Of a stretch of 64,000 nucleotides of DNA, positions 3,470 through 60,736 are shown piece by piece. Below the pieces are notes generated by a model, which ran no database searches, was not told the origin of the DNA, and was given only the letters and a program-made list of their open reading frames with translations. The position numbers were made by a program, and so were the translations under genes. Positions within the stretch are counted from its first letter, which is position 1. Each line of letters opens with the position of its first letter. The DNA is from an uncultured candidate division Zixibacteria bacterium. Lineage in GTDB: Bacteria > Zixibacteria > MSB-5A5 > RBG-16-43-9. The stretch lies in NCBI GenBank assembly GCA_963713865.1, contig OY970208.1:651957-715956 (forward strand). The letters are read 5' to 3'.

Positions 3470-3640
3470 CTTTCCCTTCCTTGATGGCCGATAAAAGCTT
3501 TACGGTGGCTACGCCCTTTGCTCCTCGTAGAGGAGGGATATAAGGGAGGGTGAAAGTATTTTTATTCCCCCTTCTCCCTAATCCTATCCCACGAGGGGAG
3601 AGGGAATAAACTTTCTTGGAACGGGCACCCTTGCCTGTCT
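3470..3640. repeat. composite GC-rich hairpin repeat, P family
   Basis: ttgatggccgataaaagctttacgg…cgtagaggagggatataagggagggtga…cccacgaggggagagggaat. Confidence 0.8.
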
Positions 3641-12121: not shown

Positions 12122-14014
12122 TTAAGCAGGTGTATCTTTAGAAAATACACCGCTTTTGGAAATAAACTGTTTCAGATAGACCATAAGAACGGCAATATCT
12201 CCTGGAGATACTCCTGAGATCCTCGATGCCTGTCCGATAGATCTGGGTTTTATTCTCATTAATTTTTCTTTTGCCTCCCTTTTAAAACCTTTGAGATTGG
12301 TATAATCGAACTCATCCGGGATGACCATATTCTCTAACTTCTTGTATTTCTCTATCTCCTTTAGTTCCCTTTGAATATAACCGTCATATTTTATTTCTAT
12401 CTCCACTTTTTCTTTTACGATTTCCGGGAGTTCCTGAGGAACCTGGTCAATCTTAGCTAAATCTTCATAAGTTATCTCTGGCATTTTCAGAGCATAGGCT
12501 AAAGAGACCCTTTTCCCGTTTTTCTCTTCTTCTAAGAACTTGCCAAATGAGTTTAAAGGTACAAAAACCTGCTTCAATCTTTCCTTTTCCTCTTCAATTA
12601 TTTTCTTATTTTCTTTAAATTCCTTGTATGCCTCATCTGAAATCAGATTATATTTATGACCATAATTTATAAGTCTATCATCCGCATTATCTTCTCTTAA
12701 AATTAATCTGTGCTCCGCCCTGGAAGTGAACATTCTGTAAGGCTCAGAAGTTCCTTTGGTAACCAGATCATCAATCAAAACACCGATATACGCTTGACTC
12801 CGATCTAAGATAAATGGCTTCTCTTTTCTTAATTTAAGAACAGCATTTATCCCTGCAATAATCCCCTGTGCACCTGCTTCTTCATACCCTGAGGTTCCAT
12901 TTATCTGGCCGGCAAAGAAAAGGTTCTCAACTAATTTCGTCTCCAAATTTGGCTTGAGCTGAGTTGGAGAGAAGAAATCATACTCAATCGCATATCCGGG
13001 TCTGGTCATCTCCACCTTTTCCAAACCGTGGACTGTTCTTAAAGCTTTTAGCTGAACATCTTCAGGCAAAGATGTGGCAAATCCATTAACATAATACTCT
13101 GTAGTATTATCACCTTCCGGCTCTAAGAAAAGCTGATGCCTGACCTTTTCTTTAAATTTCACCACTTTATCTTCAATTGAAGGGCAATATCTGGGACCTA
13201 CCCCTTTTATTACACCGCTAAAAAGAGGTGAGCGGTCCAGGTTCTTTAAAATGAATTTATGCGTAAGTTCATTTGTATAAGTCAGATAACAGGGATAATC
13301 CTTATGCTCTAAGCTTTTTGTTCTCATGGAGAAAGGTTTGATATTATTATCCCCTAACTGAGGAATAGTTTTGGAGAAATCAACTGTTTTACCGTCAATT
13401 CTCGGAGGGGTTCCGGTCTTAAGTCTGCCAATCTCAAAGCCAATCTCCTTAAGTTTATCTGAAACTTTTAAAGAAGGGAATTCACCAGCCCTTCCGGCAG
13501 GGAAGTTTACTAACCCAATATGAATTAACCCATTAAGAAAAGTCCCTGCAGTTAATATGACCGCATCTCCAAAATAAATAGTCCCAACTGATGATAAAAC
13601 ACCCCTAACTTTATTATTCTCTATAATAATCTCCTCAATATTCCCCTGTTTTAAAACCAGATTCCTTTGATTTTCTAAGGAGTTCCTCATAGCCATCTTA
13701 TAAGCCACCCTATCACACTGAGCCCTTGAGGACCAGACCGCTGGACCTTTTTTCTTGTTCAGGGTCTTGAACTGGATATAGGTTTTGTCTGTTACATACC
13801 CCATTTCTCCGCCAAGGGCATCGATCTCCCGGACTAAATGCCCCTTTGCCTGCCCTCCAATAGCAGGATTACAGGACATCTGGGCAATAGTCTCTTTATT
13901 CATAGTCAAAAGCAAAGTCTTACACCCCATCCGGGCAGATGCTAAAGCGGCCTCACACCCCGCATGCCCTGCGCCGATGACTATAACTTCAAATCTTTCT
14001 TCGTATTCAATCAT
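12122..14014 (-). CDS. mnmG: tRNA uridine-5-carboxymethylaminomethyl modification enzyme MnmG (GidA)
   Basis: 630 aa; FAD motif VIVIGAGHAGCEAA; full-length MnmG similarity. Confidence 0.95.
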   Translation of the reverse strand: MIEYEERFEVIVIGAGHAGCEAALASARMGCKTLLLTMNKETIAQMSCNPAIGGQAKGHLVREIDALGGEMGYVTDKTYIQFKTLNKKKGPAVWSSRAQCDRVAYKMAMRNSLENQRNLVLKQGNIEEIIIENNKVRGVLSSVGTIYFGDAVILTAGTFLNGLIHIGLVNFPAGRAGEFPSLKVSDKLKEIGFEIGRLKTGTPPRIDGKTVDFSKTIPQLGDNNIKPFSMRTKSLEHKDYPCYLTYTNELTHKFILKNLDRSPLFSGVIKGVGPRYCPSIEDKVVKFKEKVRHQLFLEPEGDNTTEYYVNGFATSLPEDVQLKALRTVHGLEKVEMTRPGYAIEYDFFSPTQLKPNLETKLVENLFFAGQINGTSGYEEAGAQGIIAGINAVLKLRKEKPFILDRSQAYIGVLIDDLVTKGTSEPYRMFTSRAEHRLILREDNADDRLINYGHKYNLISDEAYKEFKENKKIIEEEKERLKQVFVPLNSFGKFLEEEKNGKRVSLAYALKMPEITYEDLAKIDQVPQELPEIVKEKVEIEIKYDGYIQRELKEIEKYKKLENMVIPDEFDYTNLKGFKREAKEKLMRIKPRSIGQASRISGVSPGDIAVLMVYLKQFISKSGVFSKDTPA

Positions 14015-15675: not shown

Positions 15676-15984
15676 AGCTATTACTCCCCATTATGAAAGT
15701 TGATTTGAAAACTTTCTTGCATTTCGCTGCCTAACGCCATTGTTGGCCACTTTTCTTTTCACGGCTTTCTTGATAAATCGAGCCTCTTTTTCTCCCTCTT
15801 CATTCCGAATCTGGATCCTGTGGACCGGAAGGAGCCAGAGGTGCTCCTCCATCGTCTCAAACCAGTCTGGCATGTTTCGGTTCCTATATGGTCAACTATG
15901 CGGATGAACCGCTCCGGTGAGACCGTCCGCGCTTTATACGGGTCGGCCGAAACCGGTTGGTAGGTAAAAACCGTTAAATGGACA

Positions 15985-16323
15985 TCAATTTTCTGATTTG
16001 GAACGTCTCCCAAACCAATAACCCAATAAGGGACCAACTAAGCTCACCATTACTTCAGTATTGATGAAATTAAAAATGCGCAAGGAGACAATTCCGGCAA
16101 AAATTATTAAGGCAAATAAATATGCGGCCCATAAAGATTGAATACGATACGAATGATTCCTGGGTACGTTACTGGAATGAGCCTCTATAAAGGTCTTAAT
16201 AGAAGTTCGAATTTCCTTACTATTCAGAAGGTCAGCGATAGCTAACCAAGCTTCATCAGAAGGAGGAATTTCTTCATTAGGTTCTTTTTCAATTGGTTCT
16301 TGTTTCTCATCATCTTTGTTCAT
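15985..16323 (-). CDS. hypothetical protein with C-terminal TM helices; preceded by conserved leader module A1
   Basis: 112 aa; start overlapped by the upstream small ORF 16310..16411. Confidence 0.5.
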   Translation of the reverse strand: MNKDDEKQEPIEKEPNEEIPPSDEAWLAIADLLNSKEIRTSIKTFIEAHSSNVPRNHSYRIQSLWAAYLFALIIFAGIVSLRIFNFINTEVMVSLVGPLLGYWFGRRSKSEN

Positions 16324-16425
16324 ATCGAATCTCCTCCAAGTTTTTTTTATAGAGGCCTAACATGGGTTTATCTATACTAATTAAATTGCGATCGTTGGCT
16401 TTCTCAACCATATAAACCTCCTTTA
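16324..16425 (-). promoter_or_regulatory. conserved leader module A1 (SD plus 33-codon small ORF 16310..16411 overlapping the downstream start)
   Basis: aaggaggtttatATGgttgagaaagccaacgatcgcaatttaattagtatagataaacccatgtta…; homologous to the modules at 17873-17962 and 20295-20380. Confidence 0.7.
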
Positions 16426-16435
16426 TTTGTATCTT

Positions 16436-16500
16436 CTATTTCCCTATACAAGACTCCGAAAAAATCTTGTCCAGGATATCTTCAGTACAACTTTCCCTAA
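16436..16500 (-). other. duplicated fragment of the mnmE 3' end (last ~20 codons plus stop), ~5.3 kb from the intact mnmE
   Basis: The reverse complement encodes GKVVTEDILDKIFSESCIGK*, versus the intact MnmE C-terminus GKVVTEDILNKIFSEFCIGK* at 21745-21810. Nucleotide identity is roughly 88% over ~65 bp, by manual alignment. Confidence 0.75.
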
Positions 16501-16590
16501 ATCTGCAAGAGCCGAGCCGTTTTACGTTGTTATGTGATGAAACCGGTAGTTTTTCTTTATTCATAAAACCTATAAGCTCTAATGCAGAGG
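16500..16590. repeat. repeat module B1 (~93% identical to 17968-18060)
   Basis: aatctgcaagagccgagccgtttt.acg.tgttatgtgatgaaa.cggtagtttttct.cattcataaaacctataagctctaa in both copies. Confidence 0.8.
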
Positions 16591-16677
16591 TAAGCGGCGG
16601 GCGAGTTATAGTCTTCCAGAAAAATCAAACCATGTTCAACGCCCGTCCGCTTGACCGAATTGTTCGGCAATTTCCGT

Positions 16678-17121
16678 CTATCTCCATAGGTAGCCTGCCT
16701 CCTTTGCTTTGGCTACCAAGCTGGAATACGACTCAACCTCAATAAATGGCGCCCACTGACCATACTTCTTTTCTAATGAACCATCTTGGTGTTTAACGAT
16801 GTGCCAATAAGGTAACCAAACTGATGAAGAACCCTTATCAATTGACTCGACGATAACCAAGAATGGATAAAATTCGACCTTGCCACCATTTCCGTTCGAC
16901 CAACTTACGATCTGATCAGGGAGAAAGGCTGTCAAAACCCTACAGTGATGCTGACCAGCACCCAAACCAAAATTGAAAGTAAGTTCAATGCTCATGGGCA
17001 ACGCGCACGATTCGCATGCGTGCCCTTGGCCATTGGCATGATCATGGAGAGCAACAAATAGATTTGCTATCCAGGTTTTCTTATGACACGCCCCACAGAC
17101 ATAATATCTCTGCGTTGCCAT
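16678..17121 (-). CDS. hypothetical protein with N-terminal CxxC...CxxC zinc-ribbon-like motif
   Basis: 147 aa; CGAC...CESC cysteine pairs. Confidence 0.5.
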   Translation of the reverse strand: MATQRYYVCGACHKKTWIANLFVALHDHANGQGHACESCALPMSIELTFNFGLGAGQHHCRVLTAFLPDQIVSWSNGNGGKVEFYPFLVIVESIDKGSSSVWLPYWHIVKHQDGSLEKKYGQWAPFIEVESYSSLVAKAKEAGYLWR

Positions 17122-17224
17122 CTTGGATTCCTACTTGTGTGTGGCCCAACGCGGTGTTAATCTGCGAGGTGAACTTTTAGCCCAATTTGAAGTCCTCCAG
17201 TACAGAGTTAGCTTGAACACGTTG

Positions 17225-17872
17225 TTAGCCATTTTTTATTCTGTTAAGCAATTCTTTACAATATGAGGTTTTATATGATATTAAACCCAATTTTCCCCTT
17301 AATTTGTTTGCAGAAATATTTCGTTGTTTTGATAATATTTCTTTTGCCTGAATTTCATAATAACTCTCTTTTAATAATCCAAAATGCCATAAAAGCCTAA
17401 TAAGGGATAAAACATCATCCTTCGGGTCTATTTTTGGATCTTTGCCGATATATAGGATTAAGCCGTCAAGTACTTTAGATTCCAATAACTCGCCTTCAAT
17501 AACAGTTACATCTTTTGGAATTTTATTTTTAATTCGATCAGCAATATTAATTCCAAAAATTGTCTGAATAACTTTTTTGTCTTTCCAACGTTCTTTTGCC
17601 AATTTTCTTGATTCTTTAATTTGTTTTAAAATTCTATCTAGCGATTTATTATGAAATGTACTGTTAATATTGGATTTGCATTCACAAATATTAACCTTTT
17701 TCGGATCTTCCGGATCAATTGCGATTAAATCAAAATCAGTAGTAGCTGTAGATGGACTATATTTTGTTATTTTCTTTCGGTCATATCTAATGGGCAAATT
17801 TTCAATTACAAAAGCACCATTCAATCTTTCCATCCATAATCTACAAATTCGCTCAAACGGATGATAGGCCAT
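17225..17872 (-). CDS. hypothetical protein with PD-(D/E)xK nuclease-like motif
   Basis: 215 aa; DFDLIAID ... ICECK fits the hhhD-x(n)-ExK pattern; very AT-rich and Lys-rich; preceded by leader module A2. Confidence 0.55.
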   Translation of the reverse strand: MAYHPFERICRLWMERLNGAFVIENLPIRYDRKKITKYSPSTATTDFDLIAIDPEDPKKVNICECKSNINSTFHNKSLDRILKQIKESRKLAKERWKDKKVIQTIFGINIADRIKNKIPKDVTVIEGELLESKVLDGLILYIGKDPKIDPKDDVLSLIRLLWHFGLLKESYYEIQAKEILSKQRNISANKLRGKLGLISYKTSYCKELLNRIKNG

Positions 17873-17962
17873 TTTTAATATCCTCTTTTCATAGCCAACA
17901 TAGGTTTATCTGTTCTAATTAAATTGCGACCACTGTCTTTCTTGACCTTATAAGCCTCCCAC
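17873..17962 (-). promoter_or_regulatory. conserved leader module A2 (same element; the small-ORF start codon is mutated ATG->AAG)
   Basis: gggaggcttatAAGgtcaagaaagacagtggtcgcaatttaattagaacagataaacctatgttggct…. Confidence 0.65.
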
Positions 17963-17967
17963 AAACT

Positions 17968-18060
17968 TACTCACAATCTGCAAGAGCCGAGCCGTTTATA
18001 CGCTGTTATGTGATGAAATCGGTAGTTTTTCTTCATTCATAAAACCTATAAGCTCTAACG
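17968..18060. repeat. repeat module B2
   Basis: see B1; lies immediately upstream (in gene orientation) of leader module A2. Confidence 0.8.
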
Positions 18061-18184
18061 GGATTTTCACCGATCAAACCGCAAAGAGATACTTCCCTGA
18101 AAATTGTGATGGACCGAACTCTCAAAATTAGAAAAAGTAGTGCGCGGTTCGATCAGCGTGCAAAATTGGGTTATGGCTATTAAC

Positions 18185-19000
18185 CTACATATCTTTTTTC
18201 TCTATATTATTCCCATGATAATGAGTTATTGATAGAACTTGACGCAATACACTTAATGGTTCATTAGGAATAGGCATTGGTATTAGAATTTTATCAATAG
18301 GATACTGAAAAGGTGATAATATTTTACTAACCATAGTGAGAAGACCAATGATATCTGGTTCTACAGGGTGAAAGGGTATAGCTAATAATTTCCAATGATA
18401 CGTATCACGTTTTGCTCGAATGAACGCTGATCCATATGCATTAACAAAGGGTAATAATACAGTCATTAATTGTTTCTCAACAATTTTCTTACTTTTTATA
18501 GCTCCTTGAAGTGAATCAAATAGATCTATAAAGTTATCTACGGGAATCGATAATATGCCCAGTCTCTTACCCCGAAATTCATCGATATGAGAACGCCAAG
18601 GTATAAGTTGCTCTTGATACTGGGAACCTAGCTGCAAAGCTTCAATCATTGGATATATCATTTGTGCAGAATTAAATTTTTGGTTAAGAAATATAAATTC
18701 ATCAAATGATATTCCAGATAAGGAAAACATAACTGAACAATACGGTGATTCCGCAAGTCTATAAGCATGTCCAGCTATTTCAAAAGATTCTTGTGATCCT
18801 GTTAGGTCAGAGAGCAGTAGAGAGTGAGCAGCAGAACGCCTGAAATATGTGGCAGCAATAAATGCTAAAGAAATGCGATTTTGAATGGTTTCTTCTTTCT
18901 TGGCATGTGTAAAATAGGTATGTCCAATCTCACTATAAACATTACCAAGACGCATAACACGTTCCGAGTCAAGCTCAGCTAGAAATTCATATTTAATCAT
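18185..19000 (-). CDS. hypothetical protein (partner of 19020..19664)
   Basis: 271 aa; 19-nt spacing from the upstream gene suggests a two-gene operon. Confidence 0.5.
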   Translation of the reverse strand: MIKYEFLAELDSERVMRLGNVYSEIGHTYFTHAKKEETIQNRISLAFIAATYFRRSAAHSLLLSDLTGSQESFEIAGHAYRLAESPYCSVMFSLSGISFDEFIFLNQKFNSAQMIYPMIEALQLGSQYQEQLIPWRSHIDEFRGKRLGILSIPVDNFIDLFDSLQGAIKSKKIVEKQLMTVLLPFVNAYGSAFIRAKRDTYHWKLLAIPFHPVEPDIIGLLTMVSKILSPFQYPIDKILIPMPIPNEPLSVLRQVLSITHYHGNNIEKKDM

Positions 19001-19019
19001 TGATGTTTCCTCGTTGAAA

Positions 19020-19664
19020 TCATATAATCACATCACGGATATTAGATATTTCTTCTGGAGAAATGTACTTACGAGTGTTAAAAACTTCACTCGTTGGTCT
19101 AGGTATTTGCCTTGATCTGAACGAAGTAAGAGTAGAATTAATTTCATAATAACAGTATTTCTCGATTTGTGTTGGTGGTATATTTATCTTAGCTGTGACT
19201 TCACCTTCAGGTTGAAAAGGGCTGAAACCTGTGTATATATTTAACTCTCTAACTTCTTCAGAAAAAGGTCGGTGTGCTATGCTTTGTTTACCAAGAACGA
19301 ATAAATAACAATGAAACAAATATCCATCATGCGACCACCCGTCTGTAGCGAATTCAAGTGCAATGAGCCAAGCAGGATGCCGAATATTAATTCCTGCTGC
19401 TGGATTTCTCTCAATAGAACCTGCGGTTGTTGAAATGAATGGAGTATGTTTGTAGAAAGGTTCTCCACCTTCCTGTGGGTCGGGGTCCGTAAATCTGTTC
19501 TGATGCCAAAATAAATTACGATCTGTAAGACGTACATATACTTCTACTTCGGGCATATTATGTACTTTATTCCACCAGTTACATAGAATACCCACATTCA
19601 TTATATTATCAGCTTCATTTTTCGAAATGCCTCCAATCCCTCTTATTACTTTTTGAATAATCAT
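19020..19664 (-). CDS. hypothetical protein; possible R-S-E-type ADP-ribosyltransferase-like motifs (weak)
   Basis: 214 aa; ordered motifs YVRLTD (Arg), FISTTAG (S-T-T), QPEGEV (Q/E-x-E). Confidence 0.4.
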   Translation of the reverse strand: MIIQKVIRGIGGISKNEADNIMNVGILCNWWNKVHNMPEVEVYVRLTDRNLFWHQNRFTDPDPQEGGEPFYKHTPFISTTAGSIERNPAAGINIRHPAWLIALEFATDGWSHDGYLFHCYLFVLGKQSIAHRPFSEEVRELNIYTGFSPFQPEGEVTAKINIPPTQIEKYCYYEINSTLTSFRSRQIPRPTSEVFNTRKYISPEEISNIRDVII

Positions 19665-19757
19665 TTTTAATTTTCCCTTAATTATGCCATAACGTTACAC
19701 TCCACCGGCTCGTAGCCCACCGCGGGCTTCGCGTGCGGTGGGAGCGATAGTTGGACA

Positions 19758-20294
19758 TTAAAATAGTTCTTTCAAACTGTCTGCAAAGGCCTTGAGTTTC
19801 AACATTGTTTCAGGATTGTCTCTTACCTCTCGTGGGAGAAAGTCTTCTTTATGATCCCGCAGGTATTCCCACACGAAATCGCGGATATGAAACGGAAGGC
19901 TGAGGATATTCCCTGATCCTTGGGTGATAATTCCCTTGTTCAAGAGGGAATTAGCCGTTTGGTTGATTGCGGTTGCACTGAGTGTCTGGACATTGTGGAA
20001 CAAGCAGTAGGCGATCCATTTGTATTCCGACAGATCAAGAGTTCGCAGGCGTTTGATTATGACAGCCTTTTGCCTTGCTTTTCCTCGGATTTCAGAAAAC
20101 CAATTGGAGACACATATGGTGGCTGAGAAGATTAGTCCGAGCCAACAAAATCCGAGATAATCGAGCTTGATCTTTTCCAGTCCGAGTGACTTCGATGTGT
20201 CGGTCGGCAAAAGGATTACGAAAAGACAGACGAAGAATACTCCCCAAGCGTACTTCGCTACTGCCTCAAGTATTGTTGATATAGCTTCAATCAT
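19758..20294 (-). CDS. hypothetical 2-TM membrane protein with soluble C-terminal domain
   Basis: 178 aa; two N-terminal hydrophobic helices; start codon overlapped by the conserved upstream small ORF (module A3). Confidence 0.55.
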   Translation of the reverse strand: MIEAISTILEAVAKYAWGVFFVCLFVILLPTDTSKSLGLEKIKLDYLGFCWLGLIFSATICVSNWFSEIRGKARQKAVIIKRLRTLDLSEYKWIAYCLFHNVQTLSATAINQTANSLLNKGIITQGSGNILSLPFHIRDFVWEYLRDHKEDFLPREVRDNPETMLKLKAFADSLKELF

Positions 20295-20380
20295 ATCTTA
20301 CGTCCAACATAGTTTTATCTACACTAATTAAATTGCTTTCACTATCTTTCTTGACCATATAAACCCCCTCCAAACCTCCC
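20287..20380 (-). promoter_or_regulatory. conserved leader module A3 (SD GGAGGGGG plus 23-aa small ORF 20287..20358, MVKKDSESNLISVDKTMLDVRYD, whose stop overlaps the downstream ATG as ATGA)
   Basis: manual base-by-base translation verified against the sequence. Confidence 0.7.
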
Positions 20381-20618
20381 CACATTCTTAATGACAGACT
20401 GTACTTCTCGCCATAGGTCACGCTTGTGAACAAGAAGAAATTCGAGGCCATTTAGATGGGAATGTATTTTTCAAAAATATCAATCTCGTCATAATCAGGA
20501 TTAAAGTCCCTCATTAAAGTTTTTTTCCTATTATCTGCTAAATGTCGAGTAAAAAATATTTCAGGCTCCTGAATAAAACCTCTTTTGACAAAGGTTAAAA
20601 TCCATATTTTTTTCATTC

Positions 20619-21524
20619 TTACACTCCTTTCATTCTCTTAAACCAGCTATACACATCTCTATATTCCATAAAGTTGCAAATATCGGTCAATCCACTCGTC
20701 CTAAAGGTGGGACGACCGATCTGCCTTAGGAACATAGACCGCCTTGTATCATTTGAGACAATGTTGAATTTTAGTTTCAAATTAGGTTCAATAAGATGCA
20801 TATCATTAAATCTGAGTAACCCAGAATATATCGGCGTTGAATATTCAACTTCGAAAATTGCGGTTAGCTCACTAGAACCTCTCTGAATCCATATAACATC
20901 AACTTCCCTGATAATATTGTCAACCTTTTCATATCGCACTGGCAAATCACTTCTACAAGCGTATTCTTCTGCCAAGCTCCAATCCAATTTATTTCTATCA
21001 TTTAATGGTATCCAGATGTCATGACCTTTTATTGTCCCTATTGAGCCGATCAAAGTTTGAATTTGAGAATGACCGAGGTCCGGCATAACCACAATCTTAT
21101 TTTTATCGATCAGATTATCTAAAATATGCCATCCATAAAAACCCTCTATATTGAACCGACCAGCATTGGCAATATAAAGCTCGGTTTCCTCACCAGGATA
21201 AATCTGAACCTTGTATTGACCATCAGAAGCTGGCGTCAGAGAGTTGAATATTTCTTCAAAATCTGTAAAAGGTACAAAAACAGGCTCTGTTTGAGTATCC
21301 CATAAAAAGCAAATAACAGAATTAACTCCTTCCAATTGTTTTATATCATCTCGCCGTAATCCAAAAAATGTCTTGTCTCTATCGTGAACTTTTGAATATC
21401 TTATATATATTCGTGCTAAGCCATCGCCTATCTCAAATAAAGAGAGACTGTTCGGTAATCGTTTTGGTTTACCATATTTACTTCTTAATTGTTCTAGAAA
21501 AGCTTTCTTAAATGGATTTGCCAT
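20619..21524 (-). CDS. hypothetical protein (possible divergent PD-(D/E)xK/restriction-endonuclease-like)
   Basis: 301 aa; VDVIWI...IFEVEYS segment loosely nuclease-like; first cargo gene downstream of mnmE. Confidence 0.45.
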   Translation of the reverse strand: MANPFKKAFLEQLRSKYGKPKRLPNSLSLFEIGDGLARIYIRYSKVHDRDKTFFGLRRDDIKQLEGVNSVICFLWDTQTEPVFVPFTDFEEIFNSLTPASDGQYKVQIYPGEETELYIANAGRFNIEGFYGWHILDNLIDKNKIVVMPDLGHSQIQTLIGSIGTIKGHDIWIPLNDRNKLDWSLAEEYACRSDLPVRYEKVDNIIREVDVIWIQRGSSELTAIFEVEYSTPIYSGLLRFNDMHLIEPNLKLKFNIVSNDTRRSMFLRQIGRPTFRTSGLTDICNFMEYRDVYSWFKRMKGV

Positions 21525-21744
21525 AGGATTGTTATAACGTAATTTCAGTTTATCATCGCACCTGCCCCACGGTGATTGTGACGATTAGTTGCAATGACTC
21601 ATCCGGTATGGTCTTCAGTAGTTCTATACAATCACCGGGATAAACAACAATTTGCTCTGACAGTGCAAATTTCTGAACTATTTTTCTCTTGTCGAACATA
21701 ATACTATGATAATAAAATGTAGGTTTAGAGTCAACGGATTCATT

Positions 21745-23181
21745 TTATTTCCCTATACAAAACTCCGAAAAAATCTTATTCAGTATATCTTCAGTTACAA
21801 CCTTCCCTACAATCTCACCGATTGAATCTAAAGCAACTCTCAAATCTAAAGCCACAAATTCAAAGCTCATATTTTTCAAAAGGCTATCCTTAGCCAGAGA
21901 TAGAGATTGAACTGCTTTTGCTAATGCTTCTTTATGTCTTAAATTACTAATTAATCCGCCTAAGGCGGACTGGTCAAGTCCTTTTTTGGAAAAGAAGACC
22001 TCAGAGGCAATTTTATCTTTTAATTCCTCTATACCCCAGCCTTTCAAAGCTGAGATATTATGAATTTTTTTAGATATTTCTTTTTGCTCTAATCCTTCAG
22101 AGAGCTTCTTTTCTATTTCTTTGACTTTTTCATCTGAGACTAAATCCACCTTATTAATCGCAATTATATAACTAAAATCAGCTAATTCTTTTTCTAAGTC
22201 TTTATCCTCTTTTGTTATACCGGTCTCCGCATCAACAACAAAAACTATGAAGTCAGCTTTACTTATCTCAATCTTTGTCTTTTTAATCCCTTCGATCTCG
22301 ATCTTATCTTTAGAGACCCTGAACCCCGCTGTATCGGTCAACCTCACCGGCAAACCTTTGAAATTAGTATATTCGCTGATCACATCCCTGGTAGTCCCTG
22401 GAATTGGGGTAACAATAGCCCGCTCCTCTTTTAAGAATGCGTTTAAAAGGGAAGATTTGCCAACATTGGTCTTTCCCACAATCACAACCCTTAATCCTTC
22501 TCTCAAAATCTTCCCCTCTTCGTAGGTCTCGATCAAACTTTTTATCTGGGATTCAATCTTCTCTATCTTTTCTAAAACAAAAGACCTGTCCAGATCCTCA
22601 ATCTCTTCCTCTGGAAAATCTATCCTTGCTTCCAATTCAGCTAAAATAGAAATCAACTCTTCCTGGATGAGATTTAGTTTTTCAGATAATTCACCCTGAA
22701 GATGTTTCAGGCTGTGTTTCAGGCTCAAATCTGTCTTCGCCTTTATGATCTCAGCCACTGCTTCAGCCTGGGCTAAATCGATCCGTCCGTTTAAAAAAGC
22801 CCTGAGTGTAAATTCCCCAGGATTGGCAAGTCTTGCCCCACACTTTATTATCTCCTCAAGCACCCTGCAAAGAACAAGAGGGCTTCCATGACAGCTTATC
22901 TCGACCAGGTCTTCTTTGGTATAGCTTTTAGGTGCCCTGAAGACTGTAAGATAAACTTCGTCTATCACCTGCCTGGAATCCGGAGAAATTAGCTTTCCAT
23001 AATTTGCTTTATGGCTTTCTGCTTTGCTAAGTGATATTTCCCCTTTGAAGATTTTATCAGCAATAAAAATAGCTTTTTTGCCGCTAATTCTTACTATACC
23101 GATTCCGCTTTCTCCAAAGGGAGTAGAAATAGCTGTTATGGTATCTTCTGTGTCAGAGAGATACCCCAAAGATTTCTCCAT
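21745..23181 (-). CDS. mnmE: tRNA modification GTPase MnmE (TrmE)
   Basis: 478 aa; G-domain motifs GKTNVGKSSL, DTAG; C-terminal CIGK typical of MnmE. Confidence 0.95.
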   Translation of the reverse strand: MEKSLGYLSDTEDTITAISTPFGESGIGIVRISGKKAIFIADKIFKGEISLSKAESHKANYGKLISPDSRQVIDEVYLTVFRAPKSYTKEDLVEISCHGSPLVLCRVLEEIIKCGARLANPGEFTLRAFLNGRIDLAQAEAVAEIIKAKTDLSLKHSLKHLQGELSEKLNLIQEELISILAELEARIDFPEEEIEDLDRSFVLEKIEKIESQIKSLIETYEEGKILREGLRVVIVGKTNVGKSSLLNAFLKEERAIVTPIPGTTRDVISEYTNFKGLPVRLTDTAGFRVSKDKIEIEGIKKTKIEISKADFIVFVVDAETGITKEDKDLEKELADFSYIIAINKVDLVSDEKVKEIEKKLSEGLEQKEISKKIHNISALKGWGIEELKDKIASEVFFSKKGLDQSALGGLISNLRHKEALAKAVQSLSLAKDSLLKNMSFEFVALDLRVALDSIGEIVGKVVTEDILNKIFSEFCIGK

Positions 23182-29395: not shown

Positions 29396-29515
29396 TGTCA
29401 TTCTGAGTCCCCGTAGGGGGCGAAGAATCTCCATATGAATCAAAGAGATTCTTCGGTCGCTACCCTCCCTCAGAATGACAGGGTGGATTTTCTCAACACA
29501 CCCTAAAGGATCGCG
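29396..29515. repeat. nested-palindrome repeat, H family (gtcattctgag...gacgaagaatc...gattcttcg...ctcagaatgac) with conserved flank
   Basis: near-identical to copies at 199-330 and 59927-60054. Confidence 0.85.
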
Positions 29516-32156: not shown

Positions 32157-34664
32157 TTGATATGGTCAATGCACTCCATAAAATATAATATGCCCCTTGA
32201 AAGAGAAAAAGTAGTTCCGGTCCTTTTAGAAGAGGAGATGAAATCCTCCTATATCGACTATTCTATGTCGGTAATCACTGCCCGGGCTCTGCCGGATGTC
32301 AGGGATGGGCTGAAACCCTCTAATCGCCGGATCTTAGTAGCGATGAACGATCTGAATTTAGCCCCGGGCAGACCTCATCGTAAATGTGCCAAGATAGCAG
32401 GTGATACTTCAGGTAATTATCATCCTCACGGTGAGCAGGTGGTCTACCCCACTTTAGTCCGTATGGCTCAGGATTTCAATATGAGATATACTTTAGTCGA
32501 TGGACAGGGTAATTTTGGCTCCATCGACGGGGATGCACCAGCAGCGATGAGATATACAGAGGCGAGGTTTACCCCTTTTGCTATGGAGGTACTGGCTGAT
32601 TTAGAGAAAGATACTGTCAATTTCGTCCCTAACTATGATGGGACCAGAAATGAACCGGTAGTTTTACCTTCTAAATTCCCGAATCTAATCTGCAACGGCT
32701 CCTCCGGGATTGCAGTTGGAATGGCGACCAATATCCCCACTCATAATCTTTCAGAAGTAGTAGATGCTTTAGTATCTTTAATCGATGACCCGGAATTAGA
32801 AGATGAAAAGCTTTTAAAATATATCCAGGGACCTGATTTTCCCACCGGTGGTATCATTTACGGCAGGAGCGGGATAAAAGAATATTTTAGAACCGGAAGA
32901 GGTCGCCTGGTCTTAAGGGCAAGGGCAAATATTGAAAGGCAGAAATCCGGTAAAGAGAGTATCATTGTCACCGAGATTCCTTATCAGATAAATAAAGCCA
33001 ACCTCTTAGAGAAGATAGCGGATTTAGTCACAAATAAAGTCATAGAGGGGATCTCAGATTTAAGGGATGAGTCTGACCGGGAAGGGATGAGGATAGTAAT
33101 AGAGCTGAAAAAGGAAACCCCGGCTGAGATAACCTTGAACCAGCTCTTTAAGCTGACCCAGATGCAGTCAACCTTCGGGGTGATAATGTTAGCCTTAGTG
33201 GATGGGGTGCCTAAGGTTTTAAATCTAAAAGAGCTTCTCATTTTATTTATAGAACACCGGCATACAGTCATAATCCGCAGGACAAAATACGAGCTTGCTC
33301 AGGCAGAACACAGAGCGCATATACTTGAAGGTTTGAAGATTGCCCTGGAGAATATAGATGCGGTTATAAAACTGATCAAATCCTCAAAAGACCCGGCTGA
33401 GGCTAAAGATGGTTTAATGAAGAAGTTCAATATGACGGAGATTCAAGCCCAGGCTATACTGGATATGAGACTGCAGAGGCTTACCGGCCTGGAAAGAAAA
33501 AAAGTTGAAGAGGAATATTTAGAGTTAATTAAACTGATTGCTACCCTGAAAGGGATATTGGAAAGTAAAGCTAAGAGGATGAATATCATTAAAGAGGAGC
33601 TTTTGGCTTTAAAGAAAAACTTTGGGGATCTAAGGAGGACTGAGATCCGGGAAGAGGAGGAGGAGTTCACCATAGAAGACCTGATCGCCGAAGAAGATAT
33701 GGTGATCACTGTTACCCATTATGGATATATAAAGAGACTGGGCATTGATGCTTACAGGAGACAGGGTCGTGGTGGCAAGGGGGTTATCGGTATAGAGACC
33801 AGGGAAGAGGATTTTGTGGAGCATCTTTTTATCGCTTCAACTCATGATTATATCCTCTTCTTTACCAATATCGGGAAATGCCACTGGCTTAAAGTTCACG
33901 AGATCCCGGTTGGTGGAAAGGTTACCAAAGGTAAATCGATTACCAACCTTCTGGATTTAGCTGAAGGGGAGAGGATAAGAGCTTTTGCACCGGTTAAGGA
34001 GTTTGTTGAGAACCGCTATGTGGTGATGTCGACTAAAAAAGGGACCATCAAAAAAACCGAGCTTTCTGCCTTTTCAAACCCGCGAAGGGGTGGGATTAAT
34101 GCTATAAATATTGACGAAGGGGATGAGCTGATTGAGGCGACCATAACTGATGGAACCTGCGATATAGTTTTAGGGACAAAAGAAGGTTTGGCTATAAGAT
34201 TCCCTGAAGATAAGGTTAGAAGTATGGGTAGGACAGCTTATGGGGTTAAGGGAATCTCCCTGCGGGGGAAAGCCGATAAAAGCCTTACGGCTCGTAGAGA
34301 TGAGGTCGTAGGGATGGTGGTGATAAAGAGGGATGCAACATTACTGGTAGTAACTGAAAACGGTTTTGGCAAGAGGACTCCAATTTCCGATTACCGGGTA
34401 ACTAACAGGGGTGGTAAGGGGGTTATAAATGTTAAGACTTCTGAAAGAAACGGTAAAGTTGTGGCAATAAAAGAGGTTTTGGAAGATGACGAGCTGATGA
34501 TTATAACCGAGAAGGGGATTATAATAAGACAGCCAGTAAAACAGATTAAAGAGATTGGGAGAAATACCCAGGGGGTTAAGCTGATTAATCTGGATGAAGG
34601 GGATAGGGTGGTGGATGTGGCACGGGTAGTTAAGAGCGAAGAAGAAAGTTCAAACGTTCAATAA
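32157..34664 (+). CDS. gyrA: DNA gyrase subunit A
   Basis: 835 aa; active-site region AMRYTEARFT; C-terminal beta-pinwheel repeats; the true start is possibly the downstream Met (MPLERE...). Confidence 0.95.
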   Translation: MIWSMHSIKYNMPLEREKVVPVLLEEEMKSSYIDYSMSVITARALPDVRDGLKPSNRRILVAMNDLNLAPGRPHRKCAKIAGDTSGNYHPHGEQVVYPTLVRMAQDFNMRYTLVDGQGNFGSIDGDAPAAMRYTEARFTPFAMEVLADLEKDTVNFVPNYDGTRNEPVVLPSKFPNLICNGSSGIAVGMATNIPTHNLSEVVDALVSLIDDPELEDEKLLKYIQGPDFPTGGIIYGRSGIKEYFRTGRGRLVLRARANIERQKSGKESIIVTEIPYQINKANLLEKIADLVTNKVIEGISDLRDESDREGMRIVIELKKETPAEITLNQLFKLTQMQSTFGVIMLALVDGVPKVLNLKELLILFIEHRHTVIIRRTKYELAQAEHRAHILEGLKIALENIDAVIKLIKSSKDPAEAKDGLMKKFNMTEIQAQAILDMRLQRLTGLERKKVEEEYLELIKLIATLKGILESKAKRMNIIKEELLALKKNFGDLRRTEIREEEEEFTIEDLIAEEDMVITVTHYGYIKRLGIDAYRRQGRGGKGVIGIETREEDFVEHLFIASTHDYILFFTNIGKCHWLKVHEIPVGGKVTKGKSITNLLDLAEGERIRAFAPVKEFVENRYVVMSTKKGTIKKTELSAFSNPRRGGINAINIDEGDELIEATITDGTCDIVLGTKEGLAIRFPEDKVRSMGRTAYGVKGISLRGKADKSLTARRDEVVGMVVIKRDATLLVVTENGFGKRTPISDYRVTNRGGKGVINVKTSERNGKVVAIKEVLEDDELMIITEKGIIIRQPVKQIKEIGRNTQGVKLINLDEGDRVVDVARVVKSEEESSNVQ

Positions 34665-36749: not shown

Positions 36750-36975
36750 CGTTGTCACAGGAGTAACAACGCTACCATCATTTCCTCCTGTAGCGTCCTC
36801 ACTCCTGTCCTCCGGATCCGCTCCTAAGGATGAAGACGACTGTATTTCTCCTCCTTTGATGGCCGATAAAAGCTTTACGGCTCGTAGAGGAGGGGATAAA
36901 GGGGAGGGTGATTCCAAAATACCTTTATATTTACCCCTCTCCTTAATCCTCTTCCACAAGGGAAGAGGAAAATAT
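36750..36975. repeat. composite GC-rich hairpin repeat, P family (…gataaaagctttacgg…cgtagaggagggg…ggggagggtga…ccctctcc…ggaagagg)
   Basis: shares modules with 1393-1612, 3470-3640 and 59150-59345; ORF 36726..36959 is an artefact of this repeat. Confidence 0.8.
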
Positions 36976-37017
36976 CTTCTGCTATGCTGTTAATCATACA
37001 ACGTTATAATCTTTTTA

Positions 37018-55559: not shown

Positions 55560-55582
55560 TTTGTATCACCTCAAGTTTATTA

Positions 55583-55650
55583 TATACGCAAATTTCATTG
55601 TCCTAAGTTGCACAAGTGAAACTTATTACAGGGTAACCGCTCCCTGCATA
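55583..55650. repeat. direct repeat flanking the HNH endonuclease gene (copy A, upstream of ileS)
   Basis: atatacgcaaatttcattgtcctaagttgcacaagtgaaacttattacagggtaacc versus 57174-57240 catatacgcaattttcattctcctaagttgcatactggaaacttactacaggctaaac (~80% identity). Confidence 0.7.
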
Positions 55651-57070: not shown

Positions 57071-57173
57071 TGCAATTTTTTCAATTTAAAAATATTTCCG
57101 CTAACTTGTTCATCTCTGCATTGCCGATAAAAGCCTTACGGTTCGTAGAGCGAATATTATCCCATTTTAGGGG

Positions 57174-57240
57174 CATATACGCAATTTTCATTCTCCTAAG
57201 TTGCATACTGGAAACTTACTACAGGCTAAACATTCCAACT
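57174..57240. repeat. direct repeat flanking the HNH endonuclease gene (copy B, overlaps the 3' end of the CDF transporter gene)
   Basis: see copy A. Confidence 0.7.
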
Positions 57241-59149: not shown

Positions 59150-59345
59150 AGGTAGCGTACCCACTCTCGTCCTGCGGATCCGTTAATAGGATGAGGACGA
59201 GCATATTTCCCCTCCCTTGATGGGAGGGGATGAAGGGGAGGGTGAGATTATTTTTATTCCCCTCTCCCTAACCCTCTCCCACAAGGGGAGAGGGAATCAT
59301 ATCTCCGCTACCAGAGCAAGCCCTTGTTGGGCACGAGTGGCATCG
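59150..59345. repeat. composite GC-rich hairpin repeat, P family (ccctctccc...gggagaggg)
   Basis: ccctctccctaaccctctcccacaaggggagagggaat; related to the copies at 1393-1612, 3470-3640 and 36750-36975. Confidence 0.8.
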
Positions 59346-59926: not shown

Positions 59927-60054
59927 TGTCATTGCGAGTCCGCCAAAGGCGGGTCATTCTGAGTCCGCAGGACGAAGAATCTTCATTTGAATCAACGAGA
60001 TTCTTCGGTCGTCTCGCTAAAGGCGGACTCCCTCAGAATGACAGGTTTTATTTT
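59927..60054. repeat. nested-palindrome repeat, H family, preceded by a partial G-family arm
   Basis: gtcattgcgagtccgccaaaggcgg + gtcattctgagtccgcaggacgaagaatc…gattcttcggtcgtc…ctcagaatgac. Confidence 0.85.
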
Positions 60055-60736
60055 CTGGGACCAAAAATAGCTGTCCCAACTCTAATCATATTTGCTCCTT
60101 CCTCAATCGCCATTTCAAAATCCGAGCTCATCCCCATAGAAAGATATTTCATCTCTACATTTTCCTTTCTCAAATTCTTCATGGACTCAAATATATTCCT
60201 TAACTTTACAAAACAGGGTCTTGCTTTTTCTAATTCATCCGTGAATAGACCAACGGTCATCAAACCTTTTATCTTTATATTCTCCAACCTCGACACTTCT
60301 TCCACTAATCCCGAATCTCACCCGGTTTAACTCCATATTTAGATGGCTCATTTGAGGTATTCACCTCAATTAAAACATCTGCTAACTTTCCCTTTTCTTT
60401 TGCTCTTTTTGATATCTCCCGAGCTAAATGCAGGCTATCTACGGACTGTATCAGATCAAAAAGCTCCAGCGCCTTTTTAACTTTATTGGTCTGCAGATGC
60501 CCAACTAAATGTTTTTCGACATCTCTTTTAATAAACTTGAACTTCTCCTCAGCTTCCTGAATACGATTTTCTCCTATTATCTTTATCCCGGCATCAATTG
60601 CCTCATTTATACTCTCCGGCTCAACGTTTTTAGTTACCGCTACCAGGGTTATATCTTCCCTTTTGCGACCTGATTTTATAGCCGCTTTCTTAATCCTCTC
60701 CTCTAATCTTTTTAAATTCTCAACTAAAGAGTTCAT
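60048..60736 (-). pseudogene. yggS: PLP homeostasis protein YggS split by a frameshift into 143-aa and 85-aa ORFs
   Basis: ORFs 60305..60736 and 60048..60305 abut out of frame; together they form a complete YggS/alanine-racemase-N fold (…KYGVKPGE | LVEEVSRLENIKIKGLMTVG…). Confidence 0.6.

Follow-up and report, generated by a model that had tools for sequence, protein, structure and literature searches.

A probable attI-like site behind mnmE heads tandem arrays of integron-type cassettes in an uncultured Zixibacteria bacterium

Why should the same short element stand directly in front of three unrelated genes? The question is raised by a 64,000-nucleotide (nt) stretch of DNA from an uncultured candidate division Zixibacteria bacterium (GenBank assembly GCA_963713865.1, contig OY970208.1, positions 651,957 to 715,956; hereafter the window), in which a leader element of 66-85 nt, carrying a Shine-Dalgarno sequence (SD) and a small open reading frame (ORF), occurs three times, each time just 5' of a different gene. 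An initial annotation, made from the letters alone, took the small ORF for a conserved, translationally coupled leader peptide in front of exchangeable cargo. Comparison with related genomes suggests another answer: the leader is probably an attI-like receptor site, anchored at the housekeeping gene mnmE and duplicated in tandem, that heads an array of integron-type cassettes. What had appeared to be a new leader-peptide family would thereby become a testable case of the capture of integron-type cassettes, in a candidate phylum that has hardly been studied.

All leader copies and the genes behind them lie on the minus strand, as does every feature of the array given below. A repeat finder collects the copies as a three-member family, D4 (16441-16357, 17979-17895 and 20388-20304; 71-80% identical over 85 nt when set against the reference copy), and the core GCAATTTAATTAGNNNAGATAAA occurs exactly three times in the window, where shuffles predict 0.06, which upholds the view that one element precedes three unrelated genes. 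Reading of the minus strand likewise confirmed the SD, placed 5 nt before the start position in every copy, and the short ORF that stops at or near the start of the next gene, and the alignment of the three peptides in the initial annotation proved correct. The SD is GGAGG in copies 1 and 2 and GGAGGGGG in copy 3. Copy 3, the attI-like site at 20308..20371, has its SD at 20371-20364, an ATG at 20358-20356, the core AGCAATTTAATTAG and an L-box-like GATAAAA at its 3' end; the stop of its ORF (20289-20287) overlaps the start (20294) of a SieB-like gene. Copy 2 (17899..17974, together with GTGAG, the remnant of an mnmE pseudo-copy after a 63-nt deletion) has its SD, here within GGGAGG, at 17960-17955 and its core at 17927-17905; its start position is AAG (17949-17947), as had been noticed before, and its frame stops 4 nt 5' of the start (17872) of a gene for 215 amino acids (aa). 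Copy 1 and its spacer AAGATACAAATAA occupy 16361..16435, as delimited by the repeat family, the core and the relatives, with the SD at 16421-16417, the ATG at 16411-16409, the core at 16389-16367 and an L-box-like GATAAAC; its ORF ends at 16310 and overlaps the start (16323) of a 112-aa gene by 14 nt. Copies 1 and 2 sit within a longer repeat, in which a block named D17 and a pseudo-copy of the mnmE 3' end lie 5' of the leader.

The mutual similarity of the leader copies ends at ATG|TT in every one of them, that is between 20308 (G) and 20307 (T) in copy 3, at 17899|17898 in copy 2 and at 16361|16360, before TTAGGCC, in copy 1. We compared the window with related metagenomic contigs or loci (labelled L142 to L159), gathered through a longer nucleotide pattern, through the orthologue of a 33-aa ORF of the window and through MnmE homologues at 77-95% identity. 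The bases after the leader read TTAGGC, TTGGAC, TTGGCT, TTAGGT, TTCGAT, TTAACC or TTATGA, most of them GTTRRRY-like together with the preceding G, and at least eight different first cassettes stand behind it in the window and seven related loci. The first genes encode the SieB-like, 215-aa and 112-aa proteins in the window and proteins of 477 aa in L144, 251 aa in L149, at least 139 aa in L152 and 141 aa in L156; L146 has a GGDEF gene, and L158 and L142 have others.

The window covers a replication origin, recognised by Pfam matches: from 26135 onwards the plus strand carries dnaA, dnaN, a DciA-family gene and gyrB, and divergent from them, on the minus strand, lie rnpA, yidC and mnmE. The tRNA modification GTPase gene mnmE (21745..23181; C-terminus ...TEDILNKIFSEFCIGK, then stop; Pfam) is the left anchor and mnmG (gidA; 12122..14014; Pfam), followed by rsmG, the right anchor of a variable region of ~7.7 kb of mostly unannotatable ORFs, and the same mnmE...mnmG frame is found in L144 and L149. 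The leader lies ~10-50 nt 3' of the true mnmE stop in L143/L144 (~50 nt), L149-L151, L152 and L156, whose MnmE proteins are 81-84% identical to that of the window; a profile search places it directly after mnmE in L149-L151, L152 and L156, and behind a restriction-modification (R-M) module in L154/L155 and L158. In L149, L152 and L156 the true mnmE stop has behind it the same spacer and leader as window copy 1. A concatenated peptide query of a protein collection retrieved, apart from the 33-aa ORF of the window itself, a single orthologue, whose contigs (L146-L148) hold D17, pseudo-mnmE, leader and 112-aa gene behind different upstream genes, so that the pair of leader and 112-aa gene is kept there. 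The longer pattern matched three metagenome contigs and no viral contig. An 18-base core pattern was too AT-rich to discriminate: its 141 matches in a genome collection were all due to chance (mostly Prochlorococcus and Bacilli, at most 38/65 identity to the consensus), and viral contigs gave chance matches only. The closest named MnmE homologues (~60% identity) belong to Zixibacteria metagenome-assembled genomes; in distant Zixibacteria (MnmE ~62% identical) neither leader nor D17 nor cassettes were found after mnmE.

What follows the G|TT has the anatomy of integron cassettes. Judged by their predicted hairpins, the cargo genes are cassettes of integron type, each with its attC. The initial annotation had offered a modular organisation, in which payloads vary behind a common 5' junction, as a resemblance; it holds more literally than was supposed there. 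Each cassette has a 5' untranslated region (UTR) of only 13-36 nt, one or two co-oriented minus-strand ORFs and an attC hairpin at the stop codon, which falls inside the R'' box or at most 12 nt from it (inside it for the 215-aa gene of the window, the 251-aa gene of L149 and the GGDEF gene of L146). The hairpin that ends each cassette is imperfect and consists of RYYYAAC, ~5 nt, a bulged stem, a loop, the stem, ~5 nt and (G/A)TTRRRY. The sites were curated by hand; there are four clear ones in the window (19756-19686, 18176-18052, 17230-17143 and 16668-16576) and five in relatives, and those of one array are dissimilar to one another.

Integron integrases cross over between bases 1 and 2 of GTTRRRY, i.e. 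at G|TT (PMC8876359); therefore R'' must pair with the first bases of its own cassette, 0.5-1.6 kb upstream, and not with the adjacent R'. In the ten cassettes examined R'' is indeed complementary to the cassette's own first bases and not to those of its neighbour, at 7, 7, 6, 6, 5, 7, 7, 6, 6 and 5 of 7 positions. For random GTTNNNN against the same intergenic regions, the probability of 7/7, seen in four of the ten, is 0.008 and that of at least 6 is 0.16. Restoring the cassette's own 5' end closes the hairpin in three cases (-14.7 to -19.2 kcal/mol for attC_A, -12.8 to -16.4 kcal/mol for attC_B and -12.3 to -16.3 kcal/mol for a third). An attI site is defined operationally as the fixed junction on the left of an integron-type array, and we therefore read the leader as attI-like. 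Its 3' end, AGATAAAC CYAT G|TTRRRY, parallels the box pattern of the attI1 3' end, and its invariant core contains ATTAG, like R' variants; both are resemblances of pattern only.

Cassette 1 (19693..20307) starts TTGGAC and, after a 13-nt 5' UTR without a good SD, carries the SieB-like ORF (20294-19758; Pfam SieB, 2e-11), the protein of which was found by exact look-up in the same genome only. It ends in attC_A (19756-19686; R'' GTCCAAC ... R' G|TTATGGC), whose R'' is the exact complement, 7/7, of the cassette's own G+TTGGAC. Cassette 2 (18059..19692) starts TTATGGC and has two genes, of 214 aa (19664-19020) and 271 aa (19000-18185), before attC_B (18176-18052; R'' CCATAAC ... R' G|TTAGAGC); its own first bases GTTATGGC match R'' GCCATAAC at 7/7, or 8/8 with the flanking base. 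The corresponding pairs in L149 are GTTAGGCC and GGCCTAAC for the 251-aa cassette and GTTAGGCG and CGCCTAAC for a cassette with a TPR gene. Cassette 3 (17150..17898) starts TTGGCT; its 215-aa ORF (17872-17225), in which a D...ExK nuclease-like motif can be seen by eye only, has its stop TAA inside the R'' GGCTAAC of attC_C (17230-17143; L'' GTTCAAGC; R' G|TTGGGCC). Here the complementarity is 6/7 for the alternative box AGCTAAC, and 5/7 plus two G.T pairs for GGCTAAC. Cassette 4 (16583..17149), which starts TTGGGCC and matches at 6/7, has a 147-aa ORF (17121-16678) and attC_D (16668-16576; GCCGAAC AATTC GGTCAAGC ... GCTTACC TCTGC A|TTAGAGC, the 3' end being GCTTACC TCTGC ATTAGAGC). The start of attC_D, GCCGAACAATTCGGTCAAGC, is identical at 18/20 positions to the first 20 nt of the aadA1 attC, GCCTAACAATTCGTTCAAGC, a reference that, over its positions 3-60, is present at 100% identity in R100 and many further members of a plasmid collection. 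Probable cassette 5 (15890..16360) consists of the 112-aa membrane ORF (16323-15985) and a degenerate attC-like hairpin (15981-15890) that ends AG|TTGACC. To its right lies native flank, CATATAGGAA, then a truncated methyltransferase gene, and this flank is homologous to L149 and L154.

Between mnmE and mnmG, Pfam matches only SieB (20294-19758) and a 2'-5' RNA ligase (15675-15145), and searches of the island's proteins against PADLOC and NCBIfam gave nothing beyond one weak REase_II match. On its minus strand the island lacks terminator-like sites, and promoter-like sites are not in excess there. A further attC-like site (~14875-14812, minus strand; GCCCAAC ... GTTGGGT) stands 5' of a 124-aa membrane ORF (14800-14426), separated from the array by native genes: the truncated S-adenosylmethionine-dependent methyltransferase (15873-15691), the 2'-5' RNA ligase (15675-15145) and a 58-aa ORF (15096-14920). 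The zone that bears cassettes may reach as far as mnmG.

If the leader is a junction, what is conserved in it, a peptide or the DNA? A leader peptide or attenuator acting on the next gene would agree with the well-spaced SD and ATG of window copies 1 and 3, L144 and L146, with stops that overlap or abut the next start, and with the SieB-like gene behind copy 3, which overlaps the leader stop and has no good SD; even the diverged copy of L156 retains a loosely similar R-G-F-M-S-x-D-K-L. The further copies do not behave as a coding sequence, however. The start position is ATA in L149 and L158, as it is AAG in window copy 2; the frame is broken by a 4-nt deletion in L152 and a 1-nt insertion in L158; L142 keeps only the 3' 45 nt, the half with SD and ATG being gone; and a second copy in L146 has lost 9 nt of the core. 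The initial annotation had itself named frameshifts or random substitutions in further copies as the sign that the element is kept as DNA or RNA and not as a peptide, and this is what the copies show. It had also taken synonymous third-position changes as a hint of selection, yet substitutions are spread evenly over the codon positions: in the six indel-free copies 5, 7 and 8 columns vary at positions 1, 2 and 3, against 2, 0 and 9 in the last 17 codons of the true mnmE of the same genomes. Synonymous differences are a minority among the leader substitutions, and the closest pairs differ by 4-5 nonsynonymous and no synonymous changes. The 13-nt AT-rich core GCAATTTAATTAG, three third-codon positions included, is identical in eight copies; in the neighbouring mnmE codons about half of the synonymous sites vary.

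Since start, frame or SD half are lost in copies that keep GCAATTTAATTAG unchanged, and no third-position bias is seen, the leader, to judge from these alignments, is constrained as DNA and not as a peptide; the conserved core would be a putative protein-binding site. A peptide as the primary function is thus already contradicted, and with most downstream genes carrying their own SD, no alternative RNA hairpins and a single orthologue in the protein database besides the window's 33-aa ORF, we consider a leader peptide or attenuator quite improbable. The suggestion of attenuation in particular found no footing, as RNAalifold gave no conserved pair over eight copies and Rfam no match.

The same results bear on a third possibility, that the leader is a cis-acting RNA or promoter element (an mnmE 3' UTR or small RNA, a riboswitch-like leader or a repeated promoter) that was duplicated by chance. 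The strong conservation of the AT-rich core and the fixed position after mnmE would fit such an element, and by eye the SD region (AGGTTTAT) is in some copies partly complementary to ATAAACCT near the 3' end. Copy 3, L144 and L149 break this pairing of SD and ATAAACC and show nothing compensatory, the Rfam search was negative both at the gathering threshold and at E<=1, and no sigma-70-like promoter match lies inside the leader. Nor would a cis-acting element account for attC-bounded cassettes joined at G|TT, and we regard it as very improbable.

How did three attI-like sites come to stand at one locus? The repeated unit comprises the last ~70 nt of mnmE, the spacer, the leader, the cassettes and D17, an 84-nt non-coding block present twice in the window (copy 1, 16500..16582, nhmmer 1e-26; copy 2, 17975..18058, nhmmer 9e-29; 94% identical) and recovered by profile search in L144 (2700-2782), L146 (2030-2113), L156 (5344-5425) and L158 (5605-5681). 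Its 5' end always coincides with the preceding attC's crossover (G|TTAGAGC, G|TTATAGC or G|TCAGAGC), and its 3' end is always the junction CAG|ATTGTRGG with pseudo-mnmE, in both window copies as in the four relatives. D17 copy 2, for example, starts at the attC_B crossover (G|TTAGAGC) and ends ...CTTGCAGATT at the pseudo-mnmE remnant. The pseudo-copy of the last ~70 nt of mnmE at 16436..16505 (..GKVV-TEDILDKIFSESCIGK, then stop) has a 1-nt frameshift, while its orthologue in L146 is in frame (QIVGEVETEDILEKIFSEFCIGK, then stop); window copy 2 and L158 share an identical secondary 63-nt deletion junction in pseudo-mnmE. D17 itself could be classed neither as an attC nor as a diverged leader nor as a structured RNA: it has no significant fold (z 1.2 to -1.3), a non-significant similarity to the leader that was reached by 80 of 1000 shuffles, and no conserved ORF.

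The first explanation that we considered for these repeats was serial integration of islands into the mnmE 3' end by a site-specific recombinase of a kind other than an integron integrase, in the manner of SGI1, each island being bounded by a replacement mnmE 3' end plus leader on one side and by D17 on the opposite side. The gene mnmE, or trmE, is a known integration site of islands of the SGI1 family. In the window (twice) and in L144, L146, L156 and L158, inserted DNA does have pseudo-mnmE 3' ends behind it, and D17 abuts them at CAG|ATTGTRGG beside a 10-nt mnmE match (GAGATTGTAGG); a longer one, of ~210 nt, follows a Fic gene in L159. We demoted this model and hold it to be unlikely, because no integrase was found in any unit and the logic of attC and G|TT explains the gene boundaries, whereas serial integration leaves unexplained both the attC that matches the own 5' end of each cassette and the variability that begins at G|TT. 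Besides, L149 and L152 have leader and cassettes on a single platform with neither D17 nor pseudo-mnmE, and the identity of the D17|pseudo-mnmE junction across five genomes speaks for a single ancestral duplication with later unequal crossing-over, and against repeated integration. Two related loci show further arrangements after mnmE: in L159 (1794-3525) the Fic gene follows mnmE, with its pseudo-mnmE 3' end behind and no leader, and in L156 (5553-6908) a DACNG/DACNH-domain gene lies behind a second, decayed platform.

Several points weigh against reading the leader as an attI-like site, the foremost being that no integrase accompanies it. Pfam found no Phage_integrase match in any ORF of at least 90 aa between 11.4 and 31.5 kb or in the ORFs of 250-500 aa elsewhere in the window, and the related contigs contain neither an integron integrase nor another tyrosine recombinase; the neighbours of the site are mnmE/yidC/rnpA and mnmG/rsmG, with no intI among them. 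The array is by definition not a complete integron, and that an integrase would bind and recombine at the leader is a reading of junction anatomy only. On the side of the attC sites, two home-made attC scanners, based on pattern plus fold, did not discriminate (6 matches in the window against 1-12 in shuffles) and both missed the hand-curated sites, several R' boxes depart from the GTTRRRY consensus (GTTATGG, GTTAGAG and ATTAGAG), and the site of the 112-aa cassette 5, degenerate and with 5/7 complementarity, is the weakest. The origin of D17 and of its junction with pseudo-mnmE is not explained by a simple integron model; for the first such junction, microhomology at AGATTGT and the action of an integrase at a G|AT site are candidates.

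The last of these points is that, in the window, L154/L155 and L158, R-M genes with no leader separate the platform from the mnmE stop. In the window this insert, which is not a cassette, lies between the mnmE stop and leader copy 3 (20452..21744) and contains, all on the minus strand, a promoter-like site TTGACT-17-TATCAT (21734-21706) immediately behind the mnmE stop, a truncated N6/N4 methylase gene that is left with its first ~45 codons (21699-~21553), a 301-aa ORF resembling a restriction endonuclease (21524-20619; the weak PADLOC match to REase_II) and a 54-aa ORF (20616-20452). L158 has an intact Mtase+BglII pair on the same mnmE flank, and L154/L155 have a PLD and Eco57I-like module at the same place. 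This indicates a second insertion route, a hotspot at the mnmE stop codon.

With these points in mind, we propose that a conserved site of ~65 nt 3' of the mnmE stop would serve in this clade as the fixed left junction of a cassette array, to which circular cassettes bearing attC would be joined at the G|TT of the leader 3' end. An integron integrase encoded elsewhere or since lost would have made the joints. In this genome the platform (last ~70 nt of mnmE, spacer and attI-like site) has been duplicated in tandem, its three copies heading mini-arrays: copy 3 the SieB-like and the 214 and 271 aa cassettes, copy 2 those of 215 and 147 aa, and copy 1 that of 112 aa. The SD and small ORF would cross the crossover point and end inside whichever cassette had been inserted. 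Such an ORF, with SD, ATG and a stop supplied by the cassette, is present in window copies 1 and 3, L144 and L146, and lost in window copy 2, L149, L152 and L158. Its translation has a precedent in attI1, where ORF-11/ORF-18 enhance the expression of cassettes without a translation initiation region (PMC8876359), and coupling is a plausible accessory role by analogy, one that could matter for the SieB-like cassette. That cassette and the first one of L158, where the leader ORF is broken, are the only first cassettes with no obvious SD. Since the others have their own, the ORF would be at most a facultative ribosome-loading or coupling aid.

Beyond this, the locus may be an orphan platform with several entry points, that is, a chromosomal attI-type landing pad at mnmE near oriC, free of an integrase and served in trans, on which cassettes (many of them apparently ORFans of defence type) turn over and several tandem first positions profit from read-through transcription and ORF-11-like ORFs. 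We put this forward as a tentative possibility only; as far as could be found, such an organisation has not been described for integrons. If the site does work with no linked integrase, it would extend the picture drawn from attG sites and from clusters of attC sites lacking integrases (CALINs), in that arrays could persist and turn over at a dedicated site in trans, and it would single out the ORFan cassettes, among them the SieB-like and nuclease-like ones, as candidates for defence genes. The leader ORF would be a second, independent ORF-11-like ORF embedded in an attI, in support of ribosome loading as a general feature of attI design. If the site is only a decayed remnant of an integron, the array is an ordinary CALIN.

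Other features of the window were recorded in passing. GC-rich intergenic repeats (D6-D10, e.g. GCCGATAAAAGCCTTACGGCTCGTAGAG ... CCCTCTCCCACAAGGGGAGAGGGAAT), which may be REP-like or MITE-like elements, are scattered over this AT-rich genome at 1421-1568, 3474-3611, 34272-34299, 36849-36976, 57110-57150 and 59215-59301, and CTACGAGCCG, part of one of them, recurs in the loop of attC_A (about 19735-19705). A three-copy repeat (D11/D12/D16; 224-319, 29418-29502 and 59970-60065) combines a hairpin (GAAGAATCT..AGATTCTTC) with CTCCCTCAGAATGACAGG, one copy lying between the DciA-family gene and gyrB. On the minus strand are two tandem paralogous genes for FG-GAP repeat proteins (9883-8366 and 11394-9904; ~77-80% nt identity over long stretches), of which the one scanned against Pfam, 11394-9904, also has a type IX secretion system C-terminal sorting domain; an HNH endonuclease gene with homing-endonuclease-associated repeats (57070-55739), flanked by a 62-nt direct repeat, D19 (55582-55643 and 57175-57236); and an ORF with helix-turn-helix and DDE transposase-like rve_3 domains (49342-48041).

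Integron cassettes themselves are well known; what is new here is an attI-like platform that lacks an integrase, is anchored at mnmE and has multiplied in tandem. With SGI1-family islands, which sit in the 3' end of trmE, it shares the target gene end and the duplicated mnmE 3' fragments that flank inserts; it differs from them in that no island-borne integrase was found in the units of the window, and in its longer repeats and internal attC cassettes.

A close parallel is attI1 of class 1 integrons, also a receptor site of ~60 nt at the head of an array, to which cassettes are joined at G|TT. Both sites combine an RYYYAAC-like box, a spacer of 3-4 nt and G|TTRRRY (in attI1, CCCTAAAAC AAA G|TTA, checked as reference sequence; in the leader, AGATAAAC CYAT G|TTR), and both hold an SD and ATG from which a short ORF runs across the crossover to a stop in the cassette. 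In attI1 these are ORF-11 and ORF-18, which span the site and take their stop from the cassette (Hanau-Bercot et al. 2002, reviewed in PMC8876359), and it is their translation, not the sequence of the peptide, that enhances the expression of cassettes with no SD (PMC8876359). Peptide sequence is thus unimportant in attI1, as it is unconserved in the leader. Unlike attI1, the leader has no adjacent intI, its left neighbour being the housekeeping gene mnmE, and beyond the box pattern there is no sequence similarity; its ORF, with 17 codons before the crossover, is longer, and about half of the copies have it in decayed form, and the site stands in three tandem copies at one locus. Arrays with more than one attI-type site, and cassettes flanked by an attI-type site and an attC, are known from the Delta-attI-type cassettes (Gonzales Machuca et al. 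2026, PMC12901181). Those are fragments of attI1 or attI2 in clinical mobile integrons with IntI1, whereas the duplicated unit of the window includes a piece of a housekeeping gene and the 84-nt D17.

In the terms used for bacterial genomes at large, where a CALIN is a cluster of two or more attC sites with no nearby intI (PMC4889954), the array is of CALIN type, because its attC sites, four to five within 5 kb, are clustered and no intI or other tyrosine recombinase was found among the window ORFs scanned. It resembles CALINs in its ORFan cassettes, which have no Pfam, NCBIfam or PADLOC match except SieB, and in its mutually dissimilar attC sites. CALINs are defined without any attI, whereas here a conserved attI-like junction occupies the orthologous position in several genomes, and the different first cassettes found there imply continued insertion rather than a stranded fragment. 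Chromosomal cassettes that have no integrase near them and owe their expression to resident promoters also recall attG sites and single attC sites lacking integrases (SALINs). The attG sites, non-canonical places in the genome where an integrase inserts cassettes, are reported to have a GWT consensus, to differ greatly from att sites in both sequence and structure and to be spread over very many genomic locations (Loot et al., bioRxiv 10.1101/2022.09.11.507474). The D17|pseudo-mnmE junction, at G|AT, fits that consensus; the leader, by contrast, is a specific, conserved att-like site that is reused in many genomes.

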